From NCBI GenBank assembly GCA_016840095.1, contig JAEOSZ010000040.1:1-64000 (forward strand): a DNA stretch of 64,000 nt, given 5' to 3'. Source of the DNA: Candidatus Heimdallarchaeota archaeon. Lineage in GTDB: Archaea > Asgardarchaeota > Heimdallarchaeia > Heimdallarchaeales > Heimdallarchaeaceae. Made by a program: the position numbers and the translations under genes. Shown here in pieces: positions 7,063-16,715 of this stretch (the stretch's first letter is position 1; every line of letters starts with the position of its first letter). The notes below the pieces were generated by a model, which did no database searches, had not been told where the DNA came from, and saw only the letters and a program-made list of their open reading frames with translations.

Positions 7063-9276
7063 GTGAAAAATATGATTTTAAAGAAAAAAAAACTGCTACT
7101 ATCTCTTTTTCTCACTGTAACTACTTTACTTACATTCAATCTCTATAACGGAACTACTGTAGTAAAAGCTGCCTTGATACCTCATGGACCTATTGTAATT
7201 CAACAAGATGCTGACTTTGCTCTTTATGGGTTTCCAGGAACAGGAGATCCTTCTACTCCATACATAATTGAAAACTATGAGATTATTACTTCAAACTATG
7301 CAGGGATATTCATTACGCATACAACAAAGAGTTTCATTATTCGTAATTGCTATGTTGATGCCTTTAACAATGGTATTTACATTTATGAAACATATGGAGG
7401 AATTATTGAGGTTGTAAATAACACTTGTGAGTATAACAACCACGTTGGTGTCAGAATCGAATTTGTAGATTCGCCAATCATATCAGAAAACAAATGCTAC
7501 TTCAATCTAGAAAATGGTCTTCGATTTTGGGAAGTCTTATCACCAACAATTATTGATAATAGATGTCAATTCAACCAATACAGTGGTTTACTACTTCTTC
7601 ATTCTGAAAATTCCATTGTAAGGAATAATATTCTCAGTGATAATGGTGGTGATGCAATGGAAGTTAAATTTGCACCAAACTCTGTTTTTACTGATAATAT
7701 ATGTAACAATAACCAATGGCATGGAATCGATATTGCAGATTCTGAAATGTGTACTATAGTTGGAAACGAAGCAAATGGAAATTCAGCTGTAGGAATAATA
7801 CTTATCACATCACCATATGCTACATTAACAGATAATACCTGTAATATCAACCTTGGTGATGGAATAATATTACATGAATCTTCTAATTCTGTTCTTACTG
7901 ATAACACAGCTAATTTCAATCAATATTCAGGGATAGGTACTTCTCGATCATCAAGTATGATTATTCAAGGAAGTTTCTGCTCAAATAATGGATATCTAGG
8001 AATAAGTGTTTTCGATGGATCAAATTTTGAAATTCTAAATAATTATTGCACAGATAATGGCATTTGGGGAATAGAAACTGTCAAGATGGATTATCTAACT
8101 GTACTGAATAATTTCTGCTCGAATAATGGAGTCTGGGGATTTACAACTGATCTATCTAGCAATATTCTAGTAGCTGAAAACGAGTGTACATACAATGGTT
8201 ACAAAGGCATGTTCATAACAAGAGTCAATGAAGGAGATATAACTGATAATTATTGTAGTTATCAATATCGTGAAGATGGAATTTCTGTAGAACAATCATC
8301 TGATTTATACATTGCAGATAATCTCTGTGAATACAACATTGATTTAGGCATCACTATAGGAAGTTCTGATACAATAGTTGTTGAAAGCAATTCATTAGTT
8401 AACAATTACAACTGGGGACTATTTGTTCCTCACTCAACAAATATTGATATCTTCAATAATAATTGTAGCAACAATGCTAACAGAGGTATCTATACAGTTG
8501 AATCAAGATATTTAACAATAATAAACAATATTTGTAACGATAATACTGGAAATGGTGGTATTTTCATTGATGTCACAACCTATTCAACAATTGAAAACAA
8601 TATTGCCAACAATAATAGGTATGGTTTAGCAGCTGTTTACTCAAACTTTACAACTGTATCCAATAATGAATTCAGTTACAATATAATCAATGGAATTGCT
8701 ACTTTAGAATACAGAAATTCAACAATTTCGAATAATATCTGTAACTACAATGGAAATTCAGGTATAATGTTTTATTGGGATACCTATTTCGTTGATGTAA
8801 TTGAAAATGAGTGCAGTTACAACGCACTTTATGGAATTTATTTGAGATCATCCGATTACAACAATATTCTCTCTAATACCCTAGTAGAAAATGTTGGATA
8901 TGGTGTTGTGTTAAACGAATCCAGCGATAACAATTTCATACATCTGAACTACTTTATTGATAATAACTTAGGCTACACCTACTTACAATATTATGAGAGT
9001 CAGGGATATGATGGTTCAGGAACAAACCTTTGGTTTGATGAAGACACTAAAAAAGGAAACTATTACTCAGACTGGAAGAAAAGAGTATCATTCCCAATCC
9101 CTCCAGCTAATACACCACCCCCTCCACCTCCTCCCCCTCCGGCACCACCAACACAAATTCCACCTCCTGATATCCCTCCACCTCCACCTCCACCACCACC
9201 TGCAGCTGTAGGTTATCCAATAGATGGACCTTGGAATGTAGTAGACGAATATCCGTTGAAAATCAAAATTAAATAA
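7063..9276 (+). CDS. Secreted parallel beta-helix (NosD/pectin-lyase-like) protein with polyproline insert
   Basis: Signal peptide; GFPGTGDPSTPYIIENY N-cap; many N-x-C-x-x-N..GI repeats; GNYYSDW...DEYPL C-cap with Pro-rich insert. Confidence 0.88.
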   Translation: MKNMILKKKKLLLSLFLTVTTLLTFNLYNGTTVVKAALIPHGPIVIQQDADFALYGFPGTGDPSTPYIIENYEIITSNYAGIFITHTTKSFIIRNCYVDAFNNGIYIYETYGGIIEVVNNTCEYNNHVGVRIEFVDSPIISENKCYFNLENGLRFWEVLSPTIIDNRCQFNQYSGLLLLHSENSIVRNNILSDNGGDAMEVKFAPNSVFTDNICNNNQWHGIDIADSEMCTIVGNEANGNSAVGIILITSPYATLTDNTCNINLGDGIILHESSNSVLTDNTANFNQYSGIGTSRSSSMIIQGSFCSNNGYLGISVFDGSNFEILNNYCTDNGIWGIETVKMDYLTVLNNFCSNNGVWGFTTDLSSNILVAENECTYNGYKGMFITRVNEGDITDNYCSYQYREDGISVEQSSDLYIADNLCEYNIDLGITIGSSDTIVVESNSLVNNYNWGLFVPHSTNIDIFNNNCSNNANRGIYTVESRYLTIINNICNDNTGNGGIFIDVTTYSTIENNIANNNRYGLAAVYSNFTTVSNNEFSYNIINGIATLEYRNSTISNNICNYNGNSGIMFYWDTYFVDVIENECSYNALYGIYLRSSDYNNILSNTLVENVGYGVVLNESSDNNFIHLNYFIDNNLGYTYLQYYESQGYDGSGTNLWFDEDTKKGNYYSDWKKRVSFPIPPANTPPPPPPPPPAPPTQIPPPDIPPPPPPPPPAAVGYPIDGPWNVVDEYPLKIKIK
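9097..9202 (+). repeat. Polyproline-coding low-complexity tract (CCA/CCT/CCC)
   Basis: IPPANTPPPPPPPPPAPPTQIPPPDIPPPPPPPPP. Confidence 0.9.
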
Positions 9277-9311: not shown

Positions 9312-10451
9312 CTAATCATGTACAATTTCCTCTGGAGGAACGAAAGGAAATACTTGTCTTACAATATCGCTTGCTTTTTCAAACTGTGCGACATTTCCAT
9401 TGAATTCTCTGATTGCTTCTTGGAATTGCTCACAGAAACTTTCTGTGAAATGTTGAGCAGCCATTTGAAGGATCCATGCATCACTATCACTGATAATTAA
9501 AGTTGCCACATTTCTATCAGCATTCTCAACTACAATCATCTTTTTGTCTCTAAAACTTACCTTTCTCAGATCCGTTTGAGCTCCTGTAGTTTCAGAAATA
9601 AGTGATTTCAGAGCTGTAACTGTTCCAGTTACTAAGATATCTTGATGTGCTATAGTATCTTGTTCTCTTCCTATACTGACTGAATAAAGTAATAATCCAG
9701 AGTCATTAAAAATGAGGATTTTATTGATCTTTGCAGGTAAGAGATAGACATAGAATGGATTAAGTATAAAAGCCAGAGCTAGAATTCCAAAAGTTACGCT
9801 GAAAGGAATTGCTCCATAAACCCAGAACCCAAGATCTACTGTCCATCTTTCAAATATTTTTAGAAAAGCAGCACCAAACCCAATTCCTGTAGCTATAGAA
9901 ATTATTAAGCTCACACGTTTTAGCTTTTTGTATTCTGCTTTTATAGTGTCTTTAACATAGACATAGAAAGCTTCTCCTAGAACAAAAGCCTGAAAGATGT
10001 TTAGAATAACTCTTGAAACTCTGTATTCAGGATCAACTACACCTAGTTCAAGTTTAAATACAAGTTCTAGAATTAATACAATCAAATAACTTCCAAGAAG
10101 AGTTGATGATATAGCTAATAGGATTGTATTTGGTTTCTCATGACGCATGAATTCTAAATAAAGAAAGAGGACGAAAAGTGCAATTGCTGAGGGAATCATA
10201 TGAATCTCAAAAACTGAACTTGCATTAACTTCATTTCCTGTAGTATATTCCAGAATACCAAAAACATACCAAAGAATGAATATAATAATTTCGAATATTC
10301 CTTGTAAAATTACTAAGCCAAAAAGCCAAATAAACCATGTAAAACCAGTAATTTTATCTTTATATCTTCTATAGAGGAAATAACCCAAAATTAAACCTAA
10401 AATAACCATCTGGACTACTTTAATCCACAGTTCTGTCATACTTGATGCCAT
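9312..10451 (-). CDS. Seven-TM membrane protein with C-terminal longin/roadblock-like cytoplasmic domain (putative receptor)
   Basis: About 7 hydrophobic helices in the first ~240 aa; C-terminal KILIFNDSGLLLYS...LVTGTVTALKSLISE...F...F..QF pattern also seen in the 32915-34951 C-terminus and typical of Asgard longin-like domains. Confidence 0.75.
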   Translation of the reverse strand: MASSMTELWIKVVQMVILGLILGYFLYRRYKDKITGFTWFIWLFGLVILQGIFEIIIFILWYVFGILEYTTGNEVNASSVFEIHMIPSAIALFVLFLYLEFMRHEKPNTILLAISSTLLGSYLIVLILELVFKLELGVVDPEYRVSRVILNIFQAFVLGEAFYVYVKDTIKAEYKKLKRVSLIISIATGIGFGAAFLKIFERWTVDLGFWVYGAIPFSVTFGILALAFILNPFYVYLLPAKINKILIFNDSGLLLYSVSIGREQDTIAHQDILVTGTVTALKSLISETTGAQTDLRKVSFRDKKMIVVENADRNVATLIISDSDAWILQMAAQHFTESFCEQFQEAIREFNGNVAQFEKASDIVRQVFPFVPPEEIVHD

Positions 10452-10624
10452 TGGGTTTATATATCCAACTTCTCATATAAAAATAGTTGTAGTATTTAGG
10501 GAAAAGATACTAAACAAATATAGGGAAAGAAATGTTGGAAATTGAGTAAGTACTCCCATTAGTGAGTGTAATGGATACTCTAAAAAAACTCAAAAAAACC
10601 AAGTTTATGTCAAATGACTAAGGT

Positions 10625-10727
10625 TATGAGTTGGAAGGGTTGGGGTTCCCTTCCTAAAGCTCTGCTGGTGGTTAAAAAACTAGCGAGGATGCTAGTGATG
10701 ATATGTGGAGCATATCACTGATTCATA
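10625..10727 (+). other. Candidate structured intergenic element 1 (multibranch hairpins)
   Basis: Closing TATGAGT/ATTCATA; hairpins GGAAGGG/CCCTTCC, ACTAGC/GCTAGT, TGATATG/CATATCA. Confidence 0.45.
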
Positions 10728-10891
10728 TGAGAGAAAATACTATTTAAACACCAAGAAATTATGTGTATGATTAAAACTGACGATTTATCAGTTAAATCCT
10801 TCCTAAATTGCAGTTTGTGTAGATGTTGACACAATAACCCCTATATGTTTGTGATGGAAATTTTATATAGGTCGGTTCATAAGATATCCCG

Positions 10892-11260
10892 ATGGATTCT
10901 GAAGTAGAGAAACTGGACTATGAATTGTTACTATTGATGAGTACTTTAGGAGCAAACAAGATACGAGCAGTACTGATATTAGCTCATCTCTACCCAAAAG
11001 CCATAACCGCAACACAATTGTCCACACTACTTGGATATTCAATGAAGGCTAGAACAATCTATCGGGGAATATTAGATGATCTACAAGAAAGAGAACTCAT
11101 CTTTCTTGATAAATTAACTCCAAAAGTAGCAAGTATTAGGCTGAATCATGAAAATGTTTTGTTAAAACGTTTGATTGAGCTATCTAAATCTTATGGGACT
11201 GATTACCTGAAAGTGATAGATGAATTAATAGGGAAGCAAGATAGAAATGAAGACTATTGA
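10892..11260 (+). CDS. Winged helix-turn-helix protein (putative transcription regulator)
   Basis: IRAVLILAHLYPKAITATQLSTLLGYS...ILDDLQERELI wHTH pattern. Confidence 0.75.
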   Translation: MDSEVEKLDYELLLLMSTLGANKIRAVLILAHLYPKAITATQLSTLLGYSMKARTIYRGILDDLQERELIFLDKLTPKVASIRLNHENVLLKRLIELSKSYGTDYLKVIDELIGKQDRNEDY

Positions 11261-11867
11261 AATAAATGCAGCATTGAGAACAAACGAAAAACTGTCTAGA
11301 AATTGGGTGAAATTTTCTGCATATGTTTTGTTAGTTTTATCATCAGTTCTATTAATTATTTTCTTAGTATCAATGTTTGCAATTACTCCTGATCTATCCT
11401 ATATCGAATTATCAGGAGACTATATCTTCTTTGAATCAATTACTGAACTATATAGTCAGCATTTTCCAGATTTCTTTCAACCACCTATTATAGAGGGTTT
11501 AGCAAGCTTTTTATCAGAATGGATATATTTTCCCTTAATCTTTGCTGTAGTTGGATTCTTATCTTTTATAGCAGTAACTTATGTGGATGGGTCAATGATT
11601 CTGGAGAACAAATCATGGTTGGTAGATTTACAAGAACAGGGATTGATAGATAATTTTAGTACATACAAGAATCTTGTAATATTAACAGAAGTCGGTAAAA
11701 TTACTATCTCAAAAAATAATATGAAATATAAAGTTAAGCTGCCTAAGCTTGACAATTATGACTTGTCAAGATTTGGACTTGTTTCAGAAGACAATTTGAT
11801 AACTTGTTTGTGTTCAAAGAAAGAACTCACAGGCATTCTACATATTTTTCTTTCAAAGGTTAACTGA
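11247..11867 (+). CDS. Hypothetical 2-TM membrane protein, overlapping the upstream wHTH gene (probable translational coupling)
   Basis: Two long hydrophobic segments flanking a loop; 14-nt overlap with upstream ORF. Confidence 0.75.
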   Translation: MKTIEINAALRTNEKLSRNWVKFSAYVLLVLSSVLLIIFLVSMFAITPDLSYIELSGDYIFFESITELYSQHFPDFFQPPIIEGLASFLSEWIYFPLIFAVVGFLSFIAVTYVDGSMILENKSWLVDLQEQGLIDNFSTYKNLVILTEVGKITISKNNMKYKVKLPKLDNYDLSRFGLVSEDNLITCLCSKKELTGILHIFLSKVN

Positions 11868-11879
11868 ATCACTTATCTA

Positions 11880-11998
11880 AACACACTTTCTGTGTTAACC
11901 TACTTTCATTAGTGACATAAACTACCTGAATTAGCAGGTAGACTTACGTCTTTCCTATGAGGAGATTTCTCTCCGAATCGATCACTTGTGTTGTTACT
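11880..11998 (+). other. Candidate structured element 2 / bidirectional terminator region between convergent genes
   Basis: Hairpins AACACA/TGTGTT, CTACCTG/CAGGTAG, GAC-TTAC-GTC, GGAGA/TCTCC; possible closing AGTGACA/TGTTACT. Confidence 0.45.
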
Positions 11999-13386
11999 TA
12001 ATCTCCACTTGCGGGTATTTCAGCTGGTGGACTAGCTGCTGATGCGGATTTAGTTCCATTACCGTTTACGATGTGTTTTCGAAGGTATTTTGCATCTCTT
12101 AAATCTTCATCATCTTTAACCCTACCAAATTGACCATTGTTAAGTTTGTCATTGATTCTTTCAATAACACTTTCATACATCCACTGATCATCTGTTCTCC
12201 AACCGTTACTAGCGAAGTCATAGCTATCAAATTCGAAAGTCCAATAAACACCATGTTTGCCAAAGAAATCTAATGAATAGATGTCATAGTCCTTAAAAGT
12301 ACTCCAAATGAGATAATTCAACTTGGAATCATAGTAAGGTGGCAGTGAGATTCTAAAGAATATTCCCTTATTAAAGAGTTCAAAAGCTGTTTGGAAGGGT
12401 ATTTTTTCCTCATTTAGGAAGTGGAAGAATTGAGCTTTCTCTTGCTCAGGAATATTCTCAATAACGAATGCTCTTGTAACATATGGTTCAGATGTCTTTC
12501 TGCTTAAGTTCCATCGAGGATTGGTTATCAAATGATTAACTACAAGACTGTAGTATTTTCTACCAAATTCTACTTTGGCTGCGTCAGAGACCTTGAATTT
12601 ACCGTTTTCGTTTCGTGGCATATTCTTGGTATCGAAAAATGCACTTAAATTATAGAGACAGGCTTCTTCCCAATCTTCCAATTTAATTTTCTTTACCAAA
12701 CTATCGTAGTAGTGTTTGTAGTGTTCAATAAGCTTAGTCTGCTTAGTTCGGATATCGATAGTTATACCATTTCGAATGGATGTAGTTAGATCTCGTAGCA
12801 TAAGGAGATGTAATGGTTCAATAAGTTCAGAATCTATTGGAGAGGGAAGGCGTGGTAGTTTGGTGCTCTTACTGAGTCTCTTCTCCCAGAAGGAGATTAC
12901 ATCAAAGGATCCAGGGGTGGAAGAATAGGCTTTTAGTGGTTCTGGTTGAGAATCACGATAACCCATAGATTTCATGATAGAATAGCTATCACAATATTCC
13001 TGATCCAAGAGATATTCTAGATATTTTTTGAAAATTGCATCAGTATTCACTGGAAGATCAAAGTGGGCATATATGCCGAATTTTTCCCCATAGAAGCGAT
13101 TATACGCTCGGATATACTTGTGTTCAGATAAAGCGTTTTGTAACAATGTAAACTGGTGGAGAGATGAAATTGAAAACATCACACCATATCTGAAGAGGGA
13201 AATTCTTTCAGGAATGAAGGAAGCAATAGGAAATCGTAGAATACCTCTCTCTTTGAGAGAATCAACTCGACGAATCATAGTTTGAGGAGAAATGTTTAGC
13301 ATTTCAGCCTGTTTAGAATATGGTTCAAGTGTATAGTTCTGCAACACATTAATGATTTTTTGATCAAGTATGTTCAGTTGTTCCAT
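11998..13386 (-). CDS. Large tandem Lrp/AsnC-type transcription regulator (wHTH + RAM-like domain, duplicated)
   Basis: N-terminal LDQKIINVLQ..PYSKQAEMLNISPQTMIRRVDSLKERGIL HTH; ferredoxin-like ligand domain; degenerate second module starting IEPLHLLMLRDL. Confidence 0.78.
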   Translation of the reverse strand: MEQLNILDQKIINVLQNYTLEPYSKQAEMLNISPQTMIRRVDSLKERGILRFPIASFIPERISLFRYGVMFSISSLHQFTLLQNALSEHKYIRAYNRFYGEKFGIYAHFDLPVNTDAIFKKYLEYLLDQEYCDSYSIMKSMGYRDSQPEPLKAYSSTPGSFDVISFWEKRLSKSTKLPRLPSPIDSELIEPLHLLMLRDLTTSIRNGITIDIRTKQTKLIEHYKHYYDSLVKKIKLEDWEEACLYNLSAFFDTKNMPRNENGKFKVSDAAKVEFGRKYYSLVVNHLITNPRWNLSRKTSEPYVTRAFVIENIPEQEKAQFFHFLNEEKIPFQTAFELFNKGIFFRISLPPYYDSKLNYLIWSTFKDYDIYSLDFFGKHGVYWTFEFDSYDFASNGWRTDDQWMYESVIERINDKLNNGQFGRVKDDEDLRDAKYLRKHIVNGNGTKSASAASPPAEIPASGD

Positions 13387-13595
13387 TTATGTTCCTCTTG
13401 TTTTTGTTGTTCAAGAAACAACAGGGTAAGAGATTGAAGCCCGTACAAAGTATAGCTTGTAGTATAGTTTTTACATGCGATATCTTGTACGAAGTTCATC
13501 TCTTTTTCCCCATTTGAGAGAACCCATGTATAGACCTCTAAATTTTGTTTCTTATGGTTTGACCCCTTGCTATTTGAGTTCAGTTTAACTGGTGT

Positions 13596-13705
13596 GCCAG
13601 ATCCTTTCCAGAGGAAGAACCTGTGGGCGTCGTGACCTCGTGACGCCCCCAAGTTTCCCATTTTCTCGCCGAGAATTTGAGGAAAGGGGGTGGGGTTTTC
13701 TGGCG
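13596..13705. ncRNA. Candidate GC-rich structured RNA / cis-regulatory element 3
   Basis: GCCAGA/TCTGGC closing stem; GGGCGTC/GACGCCC hairpin; overlapping alternative long stem CGCCCCC-TTTCC-TTCTC/GAGAA-GGAAA-GGGGGTG; T-tract follows on + strand. Confidence 0.4.
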
Positions 13706-13752
13706 ATTATTATTTTTTGATTTTTATCAGCGTGATTGTGTCTTTTTTCCCC

Positions 13753-14037
13753 TTAATTGACACCGTTACCGATTGGTTCATCGGTTACTGGGCCTGCTCC
13801 GCCGGCCTGATCCATGCCATTACCGATTGGTTCATCAGTTACTGGACCTGCTCCGCCGGCTTGATCCATGCCATTACCGATTGGTTCGTCTGTCACTGGA
13901 CCTGCTCCGCCGGCCTGATCCATGCCATTACCGATTGGTTCGTCTGTCACTGGACCTGAAAAGACCAGGATTGTGCTTGCTGTTAAAGCAAACAATGATG
14001 CAACAAGTAATACCCCAATTATTTTCTTTGTTTTCAT
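13753..14037 (-). CDS. Secreted multi-copy peptide precursor: signal peptide + 4x GPVTDEPIGNG with MDQAGGA spacers
   Basis: MKTKK + hydrophobic core; identical peptide repeats whose DNA differs only at third codon positions; upstream GGTGG SD-like and TTTAAATA box. Confidence 0.9.
   Translation of the reverse strand: MKTKKIIGVLLVASLFALTASTILVFSGPVTDEPIGNGMDQAGGAGPVTDEPIGNGMDQAGGAGPVTDEPIGNGMDQAGGAGPVTDEPIGNGVN
13763..13956. repeat. 54-bp tandem repeat, about 3.6 copies (coding, 18 aa unit)
   Basis: Units start at 13763, 13817, 13871, 13925; GC-rich relative to background. Confidence 0.97.
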
Positions 14038-14091
14038 TTAACTCTTCCACCAGCTAAATTTTGAACTCAAGATTACAGTTTTCTAAACTCT

Positions 14092-14099
14092 TATTTAAA
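14092..14099 (-). promoter_or_regulatory. Putative TATA box of the peptide-precursor gene
   Basis: TTTAAATA on minus strand about 55 nt upstream of ATG; GGTGG just upstream of start. Confidence 0.5.
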
Positions 14100-14529
14100 T
14101 CTTGTTACGATTTTCCATTTACCTATTTTACTTTAAAATTTTAATGTTTAAGCCTGAATTAGCGTTTTTATGCTCTGAGAAATGCAGTTTTAGGCGAAAT
14201 TAAGCAATATGCAAAAATTGTCGGTGGAAAAAAGTAACATTGAACTTTTCATGTTGCATTACAATAAAGTTAGAAAAGTTTTGTTAGTATTTTTGTCGGG
14301 ACTTTACTTTACTTAGTTATTCTTCTAAGTGTAAGGCAGAGAATACATTTGGAATACTTTCGATTTAAAAAAGGAGAAAATACCTGGGTATATGTGCAAT
14401 ACTCTGCACACATATCTGTTTTGAGTCGAAAATACTTTCAATCATCTCTCCAACCGAATCATTTCTCATGAAGAAAATTCAATGTTTTCATTATGAAAGA
14501 TATAAATAATTGAAAACTAGATATTCTCC

Positions 14530-15072
14530 TTGATTATGCACGTAGCAAGATGTAAAAGATGTGGTAGCAGGGAGATTGATTCAAAGTATCTAAATACACA
14601 ACTATATATTGGTACAGCTTCACCATTAGGGAAGATTAGATATTATTATTGCTCTGAATACTGTTATACAATTGAAAATGCAGAAAAGAATCTAACTTAC
14701 AGTATTTTCTTGTTTTTTATTGGTTTAATTATTATAGCTTTTTGGATTTTTTATCTGAATTTGGCTATTAAAGGTTTCAAACATAGAAAAGCATTAGGAA
14801 ATTGGAAAGAAAAGAAATCTGAATATTGCTACTTTTGTCAAGCTGAAATAACTGAAATTCCAGAAGGTAAAGGAGTATGTATGAGCTGTGGAGAGATTAT
14901 ACACTATTGTGATATCTGTCAAGATCATATCTTCCTTGGTGATACCATTCTTCAACTTGAACCCTGTGGTCATATCTTCCATAAGAATGAATTACTAGAT
15001 TGGATTGATAGTAACAATGTTTGTCCTAAATGTGCTATAGAAGTAGAATTTGTAGATGTTAACCCTGATTAA
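14530..15072 (+). CDS. Membrane protein with zinc ribbons and C-terminal RING-H2-like finger (putative E3 ligase)
   Basis: CKRC..CSEYC, one TM, CYFC..CMSC, CDIC-x14-CGHIFHKNE..W..CPKC. Confidence 0.85.
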   Translation: MIMHVARCKRCGSREIDSKYLNTQLYIGTASPLGKIRYYYCSEYCYTIENAEKNLTYSIFLFFIGLIIIAFWIFYLNLAIKGFKHRKALGNWKEKKSEYCYFCQAEITEIPEGKGVCMSCGEIIHYCDICQDHIFLGDTILQLEPCGHIFHKNELLDWIDSNNVCPKCAIEVEFVDVNPD

Positions 15073-16031: not shown

Positions 16032-16715
16032 TTGTTGATTATGAATAAGAACAAGTTAATACTATTTTCAGTGACAGGTGTTATTATTCTTTCAGTTTCT
16101 ATTTCATTATTGGTTGTCTTTATACCAAGAGCTCCTCCAGGAGGAGCAGAATATGAAATATCATTTGCAGCTTTCTGGAGCGAATCTACTCACCCATATG
16201 ATTTTCCTCCAGCTCCTCATTGGTCAGGACTAATTGGTGCTACTCATGCAGCTAATATTACTTTTTGGGAGATAGGTGGATTGGCTTCTTTAGGAATTAA
16301 GAACGTAGCTGAAACAGGAAGTAAAACAGCTCTAATTGATGAGGTAAACATTGCTATTACAAACAATACTGCTTTCTCTTTGATCTCAGGTCCTGGAATT
16401 AATCCTTCTCCAGGAATTGCAAAAACTGAGTTTACAATTAGCAGAGATTTTCCATTAGTTACTATAGTATCTATGATTGCTCCTAGTCCAGATTGGTTTA
16501 TAGGCATCAACTCAGTCAACTTACTTGATGATGGTGAATGGGTGGATGAACTTGTTCTACTAGTATATCTTTATGATGCTGGAACTGACAGTGGTTTAAC
16601 TTATACTGCTTCTAATAATGCCACTATTCCACAAGTACCAATTGTTCTAATTACTGATTCTGATTTACCTGGTAGTAATTTAGCTTTCGGAACATTCACA
16701 TTCACAAAAATTTAA
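16032..16715 (+). CDS. Spondin_N (F-spondin/mindin N-terminal) domain protein, membrane-anchored
   Basis: W..STHP.DFP..PHWSGLIGATH, MIAPSPDWFIG, YDAGTDSG motifs; N-terminal TM. Confidence 0.88.
   Translation: MLIMNKNKLILFSVTGVIILSVSISLLVVFIPRAPPGGAEYEISFAAFWSESTHPYDFPPAPHWSGLIGATHAANITFWEIGGLASLGIKNVAETGSKTALIDEVNIAITNNTAFSLISGPGINPSPGIAKTEFTISRDFPLVTIVSMIAPSPDWFIGINSVNLLDDGEWVDELVLLVYLYDAGTDSGLTYTASNNATIPQVPIVLITDSDLPGSNLAFGTFTFTKI

Follow-up and report, generated by a model that had tools for sequence, protein, structure and literature searches.

A multi-copy propeptide gene paired with a tandem-Lrp regulator gene in a heimdallarchaeon: a probable peptide-signalling precursor

The ORF of 94 aa studied here is located in a 64-kb window from Candidatus Heimdallarchaeota archaeon (the window being the whole stretch of 64,000 nucleotides analyzed). 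It is a real feature and part of an undescribed Asgard-wide gene pair, its partner being the neighbouring gene for a tandem Lrp/AsnC protein (Table 1). Its product is probably a peptide-signalling precursor, and on balance the evidence tips towards the ORF being the propeptide of a two-gene cassette in which the released core would be the ligand of the neighbouring tandem-Lrp regulator. The fixed pairing with the tandem-Lrp gene is the main feature of the system and was absent from the initial annotation. No published description of the precursor/tandem-Lrp pair was found in the literature, coverage of which was incomplete.

Table 1 Coordinates of the gene pair, its intergenic region and its promoter elements in the window
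Feature	Position	Strand	Basis
Tandem Lrp/AsnC protein, 462 aa, HTH-RAM-HTH-RAM, putative cognate regulator	11998..13386	-	profiles, fold, adjacency
Structured, conserved region between the genes, putative leader RNA for the regulator	13387..13752	-	z = -4.4; homologue folding; no Rfam family
Hairpin with compensatory stem changes and conserved AGGUC loop	13625..13648	-	per-sequence folding
Multi-copy propeptide gene, predicted exported, 94 aa	13753..14037	-	ORF list, repeat search, homologues
Core 4, followed by 4-residue tail	13768..13794	-	
Three 9-residue linkers (13903-13929, 13849-13875, 13795-13821)	span 13795..13929	-	species-variable, ending GGA
Core 3	13822..13848	-	
Core 2	13876..13902	-	
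Core 1, 9 aa, starts X-Pro, abuts the signal	13930..13956	-	
Predicted Sec-type signal peptide (residues 1-27; cut site Ser27/Gly28)	13957..14037	-	hydropathy; small residues at -3/-1 in homologues
Shine-Dalgarno-like element GCTGGTGGA, 8 nt before ATG	14046..14054	-	invariant in 16/16 loci
TATA box TTTAAATA	14092..14099	-	same position in 13/14 loci listed
Candidate proximal 15-bp operator site, lies over the BRE position, its end 3 nt from the TATA box	14103..14117	-	promoter alignment, matrix scan
Candidate distal 15-bp operator site, inverted	14225..14239	+	promoter alignment, matrix scan

The 94-residue product consists of a basic start (three Lys), a 21-residue hydrophobic stretch (peak Kyte-Doolittle value 2.2), four identical cores and three identical linkers; the ORF and its repeat, with four copies in the assembly, proved real as originally written. 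Tandem Repeats Finder recovered a 54-bp unit present 3.6 times at 13766-13958 (94 % matches, no indels, score 330), which is the strongest tandem repeat within the window. The repeat units differ at exactly seven positions, all seven of them third-codon and synonymous; since only ~25 % of the possible single changes in the unit are synonymous, this corresponds to p ~6e-5 and bears out the proposed purifying selection. The same seven changes alter residues in two open frames of the + strand, and the other frames contain stops. The gene is single-copy in the genome, and its product has no Pfam or NCBIfam match and only ESM Atlas matches below 0.9. The predicted signal peptide has a very short c-region, and small residues occupy positions -3 and -1 of the predicted cut in every homologue inspected. 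Two other identities of the ORF were considered and rejected: (i) a class III (pilin) signal or a lipoprotein, no such motif being present, and (ii) a SecM-like arrest peptide, the AGP here standing without a preceding Arg and missing from the intermediate and long forms described below.

Direct searches with the ORF yielded six database proteins and matches in 12 of the 24 other genomes of the genus, with no direct match in other genera; the close relatives of the source genome are Ca. Heimdallarchaeota MAGs. Five homologues that are more diverged came from inspection of the region in front of the neighbouring gene, bringing short or intermediate precursors to 18 of the 25 genomes of this Heimdallarchaeia genus (source genome included), and a multi-copy profile detected nothing outside the genus among 201 Asgard genomes. 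The homologues carry two to seven copies of the core. The variable copy number anticipated by the initial annotation was thus found, and these independent homologues exclude an assembly artefact as the origin of the repeat. Together with the signal-like N-terminus, the genus homologues uphold a multi-copy, predicted exported peptide precursor in an Asgard archaeon.

The same comparison redefines the core. An 11-residue core, GPVTDEPIGNG, had been proposed, and had to be shortened to the nine residues GPVTDEPIG because conservation across homologues stops at the Gly of DEPIG; the following NG belongs to the variable linker. Within the subclade of the window, the core reads X-P-V-[TEQ]-D-E-P-I-G with invariant Pro2, Asp5, Pro7, Ile8 and Gly9, while other species have 12-residue cores with a three-residue insert. 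Linkers vary in sequence and in length (3 to 9 residues), only their last three residues (GGA) being invariant in the subclade of the window. Every core starts with X-Pro, and in minimal forms core 1 directly follows the predicted signal-peptidase site. Within-gene differences counted over 19 genes amount to 64 synonymous versus 10 non-synonymous in cores and 13 versus 6 in linkers; cores are more conserved than linkers, as the distinction of core and spacer implied. The argument originally given for this distinction, i.e., four cores but only three spacers, is invalid alone, because the recognition sequences of cyanobactin precursors likewise occur n+1 times; the core assignment stands on comparative grounds.

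In all 18 genomes of the genus in which the flank is assembled, the precursor gene lies directly upstream of the regulator gene, with 350-400 nt between it and the gene for a 446-479-aa protein on the same strand (366 nt here). The predicted structure of the 462-aa protein comprises two Lrp/AsnC units (pLDDT 81), i.e., wHTH plus RAM twice in one chain, albeit with scores near or under the Pfam cut-offs. In sequence-profile searches it matches LrpA and PH1519 best, by way of its N-terminal HTH, and the recognition helix of the HTH is conserved. The top Foldseek match is fused NirDL (E 1e-9, 14 % identity), followed by Lrp regulators.

This fold match bears on the RiPP-like reading put forward initially. 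In an extension of that reading, the cores would be cyclised or carry other modifications, and the tandem-Lrp protein might be the enzyme responsible, by analogy with NirDL/AhbAB. The fused double-Lrp architecture is indeed shared with the siroheme decarboxylases NirDL/AhbAB (4CH7, 4CZD), the repeat layout resembles that of cyanobactin and dikaritin precursors, and two unlinked prolyl oligopeptidases are encoded in the genome. Unlike these decarboxylases, however, the protein is associated with a candidate operator, has no haem genes nearby, and neither it nor any other protein of the genome matches the NirDL-type RAM family PF17805 (AsnC_trans_reg2); its best solved relatives by sequence are Lrp regulators such as LrpA, and the conserved recognition helix likewise speaks for a DNA-binding protein. 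Moreover, Sec export would part the substrate from a cytoplasmic enzyme. No tailoring enzyme, dedicated protease or transporter of the kind clustered with RiPP genes (cyanobactin, dikaritin and double-glycine types) is conserved in the flanks, and no C39 peptidase is encoded in the 89 %-complete source genome. In the lack of a linked enzyme, we regard RiPP formation as the least probable of the readings considered.

Tandem peptide copies within one precursor are also known from fungal alpha-factor and other Kex2-processed repeat proteins (PMC7329392), which share a signal peptide with the present case, and from cyanobactin precursors. In contrast to these systems, the 94-aa ORF contains no dibasic KR, RR or KK sites (single Lys or Arg residues occur only in intermediate forms), tailoring enzymes or PatA/PatG are not linked, and the fixed partner is an intracellular regulator. 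The alpha-factor/KEP analogy preferred in the initial annotation therefore does not hold as the closest one, the constant neighbour being a cytoplasmic regulator rather than a surface receptor.

The surroundings of the gene pair include several further genes. In 10-12 loci of the genus, the regulator has as neighbours a multi-pass membrane gene and a convergent two-gene unit for which Pfam gave no hits (window 9312-11867). A gene for a membrane-anchored RING-finger protein (window 14530-15072) is oriented divergently to the peptide gene, and five loci have a relative of it nearby. The window also contains genes for a Spondin_N domain protein (16032-16715; E 3e-49) with an N-terminal membrane anchor, this domain being best known from animal extracellular proteins, and for a NosD-like exported beta-helix protein in which a poly-Pro stretch lies close to the C-terminus (7063-9276).

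Beyond the genus, tandem-Lrp genes are paired with a long form of the precursor, a predicted exported Ig-like protein of about 150-170 aa with a disordered C-terminal DPP-Gly-x-DxP tail. Of 301 Asgard genomes, 96 encode this long form, in as many as nine copies. They are spread across the class of the window and a Thorarchaeia-like family, whereas none of the 68 genomes of another large family has it. Enriched Ca. Heimdallarchaeum is among the carriers of long-form pairs. The long forms fall into 335 clusters at 50 % identity and belong to no Pfam or NCBIfam family. A tandem-Lrp gene is located immediately downstream in 80 of 81 distinct loci, and in 56 of 57 when loci are selected solely by their precursor, the single exception lying at a contig end. 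In the AlphaFold2 model, seven strands form an Ig-like sandwich whose last residue is the Phe of an invariant FDP motif, and the ~18 tail residues behind it are disordered; fold searches yielded generic Ig-like matches only (Z up to 11.9, many ties). The source genome itself harbours four tandem-Lrp genes: two in long-form pairs (Ig domain plus tail) with nearly abutting genes (G000:C58:4688-6421 and G000:C51:543-2150), that of the short pair in the window, and a fourth without such a partner (G000:C14:76639-78716), which is preceded by a membrane-anchored 291-aa protein that is not a precursor. Elsewhere, two tandem-Lrp genes are arranged in tandem with a long-form precursor between them (G025:C39:81700-85200), suggesting local cassette duplication.

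Long and short forms are connected by intermediate forms in five genomes of the window's genus, composed of a signal, a 24-residue remnant of the last strand and two to three cores, each with Lys or Arg right before it or one residue before it. The long-form tail of complete-genome relatives contains DEPIG, like the core in the window. The long-tail profile detects an intermediate form (E 4e-4) and not the window ORF, so that homology of the latter to the long form is transitive and positional. A tree of 87 regulators (quick IQ-TREE search, midpoint root) unites the partners of short and intermediate precursors in a single clade (SH-aLRT 100), nested within a long-form group with DxP-type tails. 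Judged from these sequence relationships, the short form would most simply have arisen when the Ig domain was lost and the tail behind it multiplied. In another genus of the family, the Ig domain seems to have been reduced a second time, independently, leaving a 102-aa precursor with a single tail (L054:1000-1305, G028).

Conservation of the long forms follows the regulators. Inside regulator clades, tail residues 4-12 are more conserved than the Ig domain (0.95 vs 0.60, 0.84 vs 0.59 and 0.72 vs 0.42); the first of these values are from a 13-member clade, in which the rest of the tail reaches 0.56. Compared between clades, the same residues score 0.41. A tail conserved inside and divergent between clades is the pattern of a specificity determinant, though kinship alone also clusters labels.

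Another reading is that the protein stays intact, as a reduced surface Ig protein. Its Pro/Gly/Asp-rich repeat would then be secreted or tethered to the membrane, serving as a spacer or as a strand for metal binding or adhesion. The generic Ig-like sandwich of the long form, as in many surface domains, would suit such a role, as would the linker function of similar motifs in other exported proteins; moreover, cleavage is a prediction and the c-region of the signal is very short. Nevertheless, this appears decidedly unlikely, since the domain was lost while the tail was retained and multiplied, an invariant core alternates with linkers of 3 to 9 residues, Lys or Arg marks each core of the intermediates, a C-terminal anchor is missing from the 94-aa protein, and the fixed regulator is left unexplained.

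The promoter of the precursor gene provides a candidate target of the regulator. Two inverted 15-bp sites are common to 16 promoters, with 3-4 nt between the proximal site and the TATA box. Their length and a spacing of about 30 bp match the habit of the Lrp/AsnC family, and the regulator would bind both sites. The two sites are separated by 14-17 nt in 15 of 15 relatives and by 107 nt in the source genome, owing to a unique insertion. The ~92 extra nt (window 14118-14224) are confined to the source genome, without another copy in this genome or in the compared loci, and may alter or break cooperative binding. Neither this insertion nor the repeat was spanned by the DNA sequencing run inspected. 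The two-site pattern occurs exactly once in 15 of 24 relatives (reversed control 0) and is located at the precursor promoter in the 14 of these 15 in which its position was checked. With a matrix trained without the source genome, the two sites of the window rank first and second genome-wide, the proximal one being the best. Secondary operator sites showed no genome-wide excess over shuffled matrices, and therefore no output beyond the cassette itself is visible. Long-form groups possess their own conserved boxes near the TATA box.

Restriction of the operator to the peptide promoter would also be expected if the peptide were the output, i.e., a secreted effector or pheromone for a surface receptor or other cells in line with the hormone reading of the initial annotation, with the tandem-Lrp protein providing metabolite-responsive control of its expression. 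Amplification of copies suits a dose-limited product, and a gene for a 379-aa multi-pass membrane protein is present 3.3 kb downstream in 10 loci; the latter, however, sits in a block of genus-wide conserved order anyway. Furthermore, each precursor paralogue retains its own regulator and the type of tail tracks the regulator clade, which is unnecessary for a simple metabolite sensor. We therefore hold an output role to be unlikely, though not negligible.

Between the two genes lies a region that folds better than shuffled sequences (z -4.4 here; -2.5 to -9.2 in 19 homologues, sense strand), and the G-U pairs that its hairpin shows in some relatives speak for the mRNA strand. AGGUC elements are repeated in this intergenic RNA, one of them occupying the ribosome-binding position in several species. 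The region has no credible Rfam match, and a passing likeness to c-di-GMP-I/c-di-AMP riboswitch words was dropped as no Rfam hit was obtained. RNAalifold on a MAFFT alignment revealed no covarying pairs because the stems are misaligned; they are visible by per-sequence folding. In a sister genus, the gap between precursor and regulator contains three copies of a small hairpin with a conserved tail, ~100 nt apart (L049:1162-1503, L050:1152-1503), and is strongly structured (z -9.2 and -5.3). In one wetland metatranscriptome, the precursor, leader and regulator of a relative are partly covered by contigs; these are small-share contigs without strand or level and were not counted as expression.

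The structured RNA with its repeated AGGUC elements would fit a monitor of export that requires no re-import: an unexported precursor would show its tail to the cytoplasmic regulator, or its translation would remodel the RNA leader, the pair thereby sensing secretion capacity. Such a device would have the same genetic layout, and the cassette as the only visible target of the regulator agrees with it. However, it has no need for up to nine paralogues with different tails, and Sec genes are not linked, rendering it very improbable.

The favoured reading, a peptide/regulator loop, would comprise four steps: (i) Sec export and signal-peptidase cleavage, which would free core 1; (ii) cutting of the linkers by unlinked extracellular proteases, with aminopeptidase trimming halting at X-Pro, to yield four copies of an acidic peptide of roughly 9-12 residues; (iii) re-uptake by an oligopeptide ABC transporter; and (iv) binding of the peptide to the tandem-Lrp protein sitting on the two 15-bp sites beside the TATA box, which would alter transcription of the peptide-RNA-regulator unit. 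In the simplest case, the latter would mean relief of repression and thus positive feedback, and repetition of the core would raise the peptide dose per transcript. The genome encodes 15 oligopeptide-binding proteins, eight subtilases, seven M24 and two prolyl oligopeptidases, all of them unlinked; neither a protease nor a transporter is linked to the cassette.

Structure prediction of the regulator with two cores gave a score of 0.43 (runs 0.43, 0.77 and 0.01) against 0.02 for the best control, contact agreement being 11 % or more and partner pLDDT 30 or more, a mark reached by 58 of 80 solved and by 2 of 110 mismatched pairs, of which only seven solved ones and both mismatches lie at or below 0.60. 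The complex model lends weak support to binding of the core by the regulator. We know of no Lrp/AsnC protein that binds a peptide. Two further observations stand against the loop, namely that one of the four tandem-Lrp paralogues of the source genome lacks a precursor partner, and that the operator halves in this genome are split by 92 extra nt. In addition, a DP-Gly-rich-DP motif like the core is present in three other exported proteins of the genome without a regulator beside them, and may therefore be a general cleavage or linker motif. In these three proteins (G000:C155:26010-28710, C76:15497-17446), it takes the form [FL]DP-Gly/Pro-rich-DP, located right after the signal peptide in two cases and before a hydrophobic C-terminal domain in one, and is possibly a shared Asp-Pro cleavage site.

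In its organization, the pair resembles the RRNPP(A) systems (Rap-Phr, NprR-NprX, PlcR-PapR, AimR-AimP; PMC10075063, PMC5199041), in which a small Sec-exported propeptide (export being predicted here) is encoded beside a cytoplasmic regulator of 250-500 aa, many paralogous pairs with different peptides exist per genome, and the peptide is duplicated intragenically. RRNPP systems are defined by a propeptide of 10-100 aa, a receptor of 250-500 aa with peptide-binding TPRs, adjacency within -60 to 400 bp, Sec export with maturation by peptidases, and re-import of the peptide for binding by the receptor (PMC10075063). The propeptide (94 aa) and the regulator (462 aa) are within these size ranges, although the long relatives of about 150-170 aa exceed the former, and the 366-nt gap agrees with the required adjacency, which is conserved. 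With a signal-like N-terminus recognized by inspection, the pair plausibly conforms to Sec export as well. The receptor candidate, in contrast, consists of alpha/beta Lrp units (HTH-RAM twice) without TPRs, which places the pair outside RRNPP; by analogy, it may work like an RRNPP cassette without being a member. Further differences are the archaeal host, the Ig domain of the ancestral precursor, and the structured RNA between the genes. The repeat layout can be understood without recourse to fungi, since phr and nprX provide known cases of intragenic autoinducer duplication (PMC5199041).

With archaeal Lrp/AsnC proteins (LrpA, 1I1G; FL11/PH1519; Ss-LrpB; PMC4046817), the regulator shares the HTH and RAM folds, and thereby family membership twice per chain, as well as, putatively, several boxes at its own promoter. 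Ss-LrpB autoregulates through such boxes (PMC4046817), whereas autoregulation is a proposal in the present case. Unlike in these proteins, two units are fused in one chain and the site is asymmetric, and the proposed ligand is a gene-encoded peptide instead of an amino acid.

On a wider scale, it is quite conceivable, with doubt slightly prevailing, that Asgard archaea own an independently evolved peptide-signalling family, in which exported precursors, either with the Ig domain or reduced and tandemly amplified like the present one, would give rise to short DP-type peptides. Each peptide would be recognized by its cognate tandem-Lrp transcription factor, and a genome would run several channels in parallel. 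If true, this would to our knowledge be without precedent in two respects, as a defined peptide system of cell-cell signalling in archaea and as an Lrp that senses a peptide. Cell-cell communication of archaea is poorly known, and the signal of Haloferax was described as a small molecule and not a large peptide (PMC12240190). With a defined peptide, a receptor candidate and an operator at hand, the question is directly testable in vitro (a 9-mer, one protein and 45-bp DNA). The subject is an archaeal class close to eukaryotes, in which multi-copy peptide precursors can apparently arise once a carrier domain is lost and its tail amplified; should binding of the core prove true, the Lrp proteins would gain a new class of ligand.
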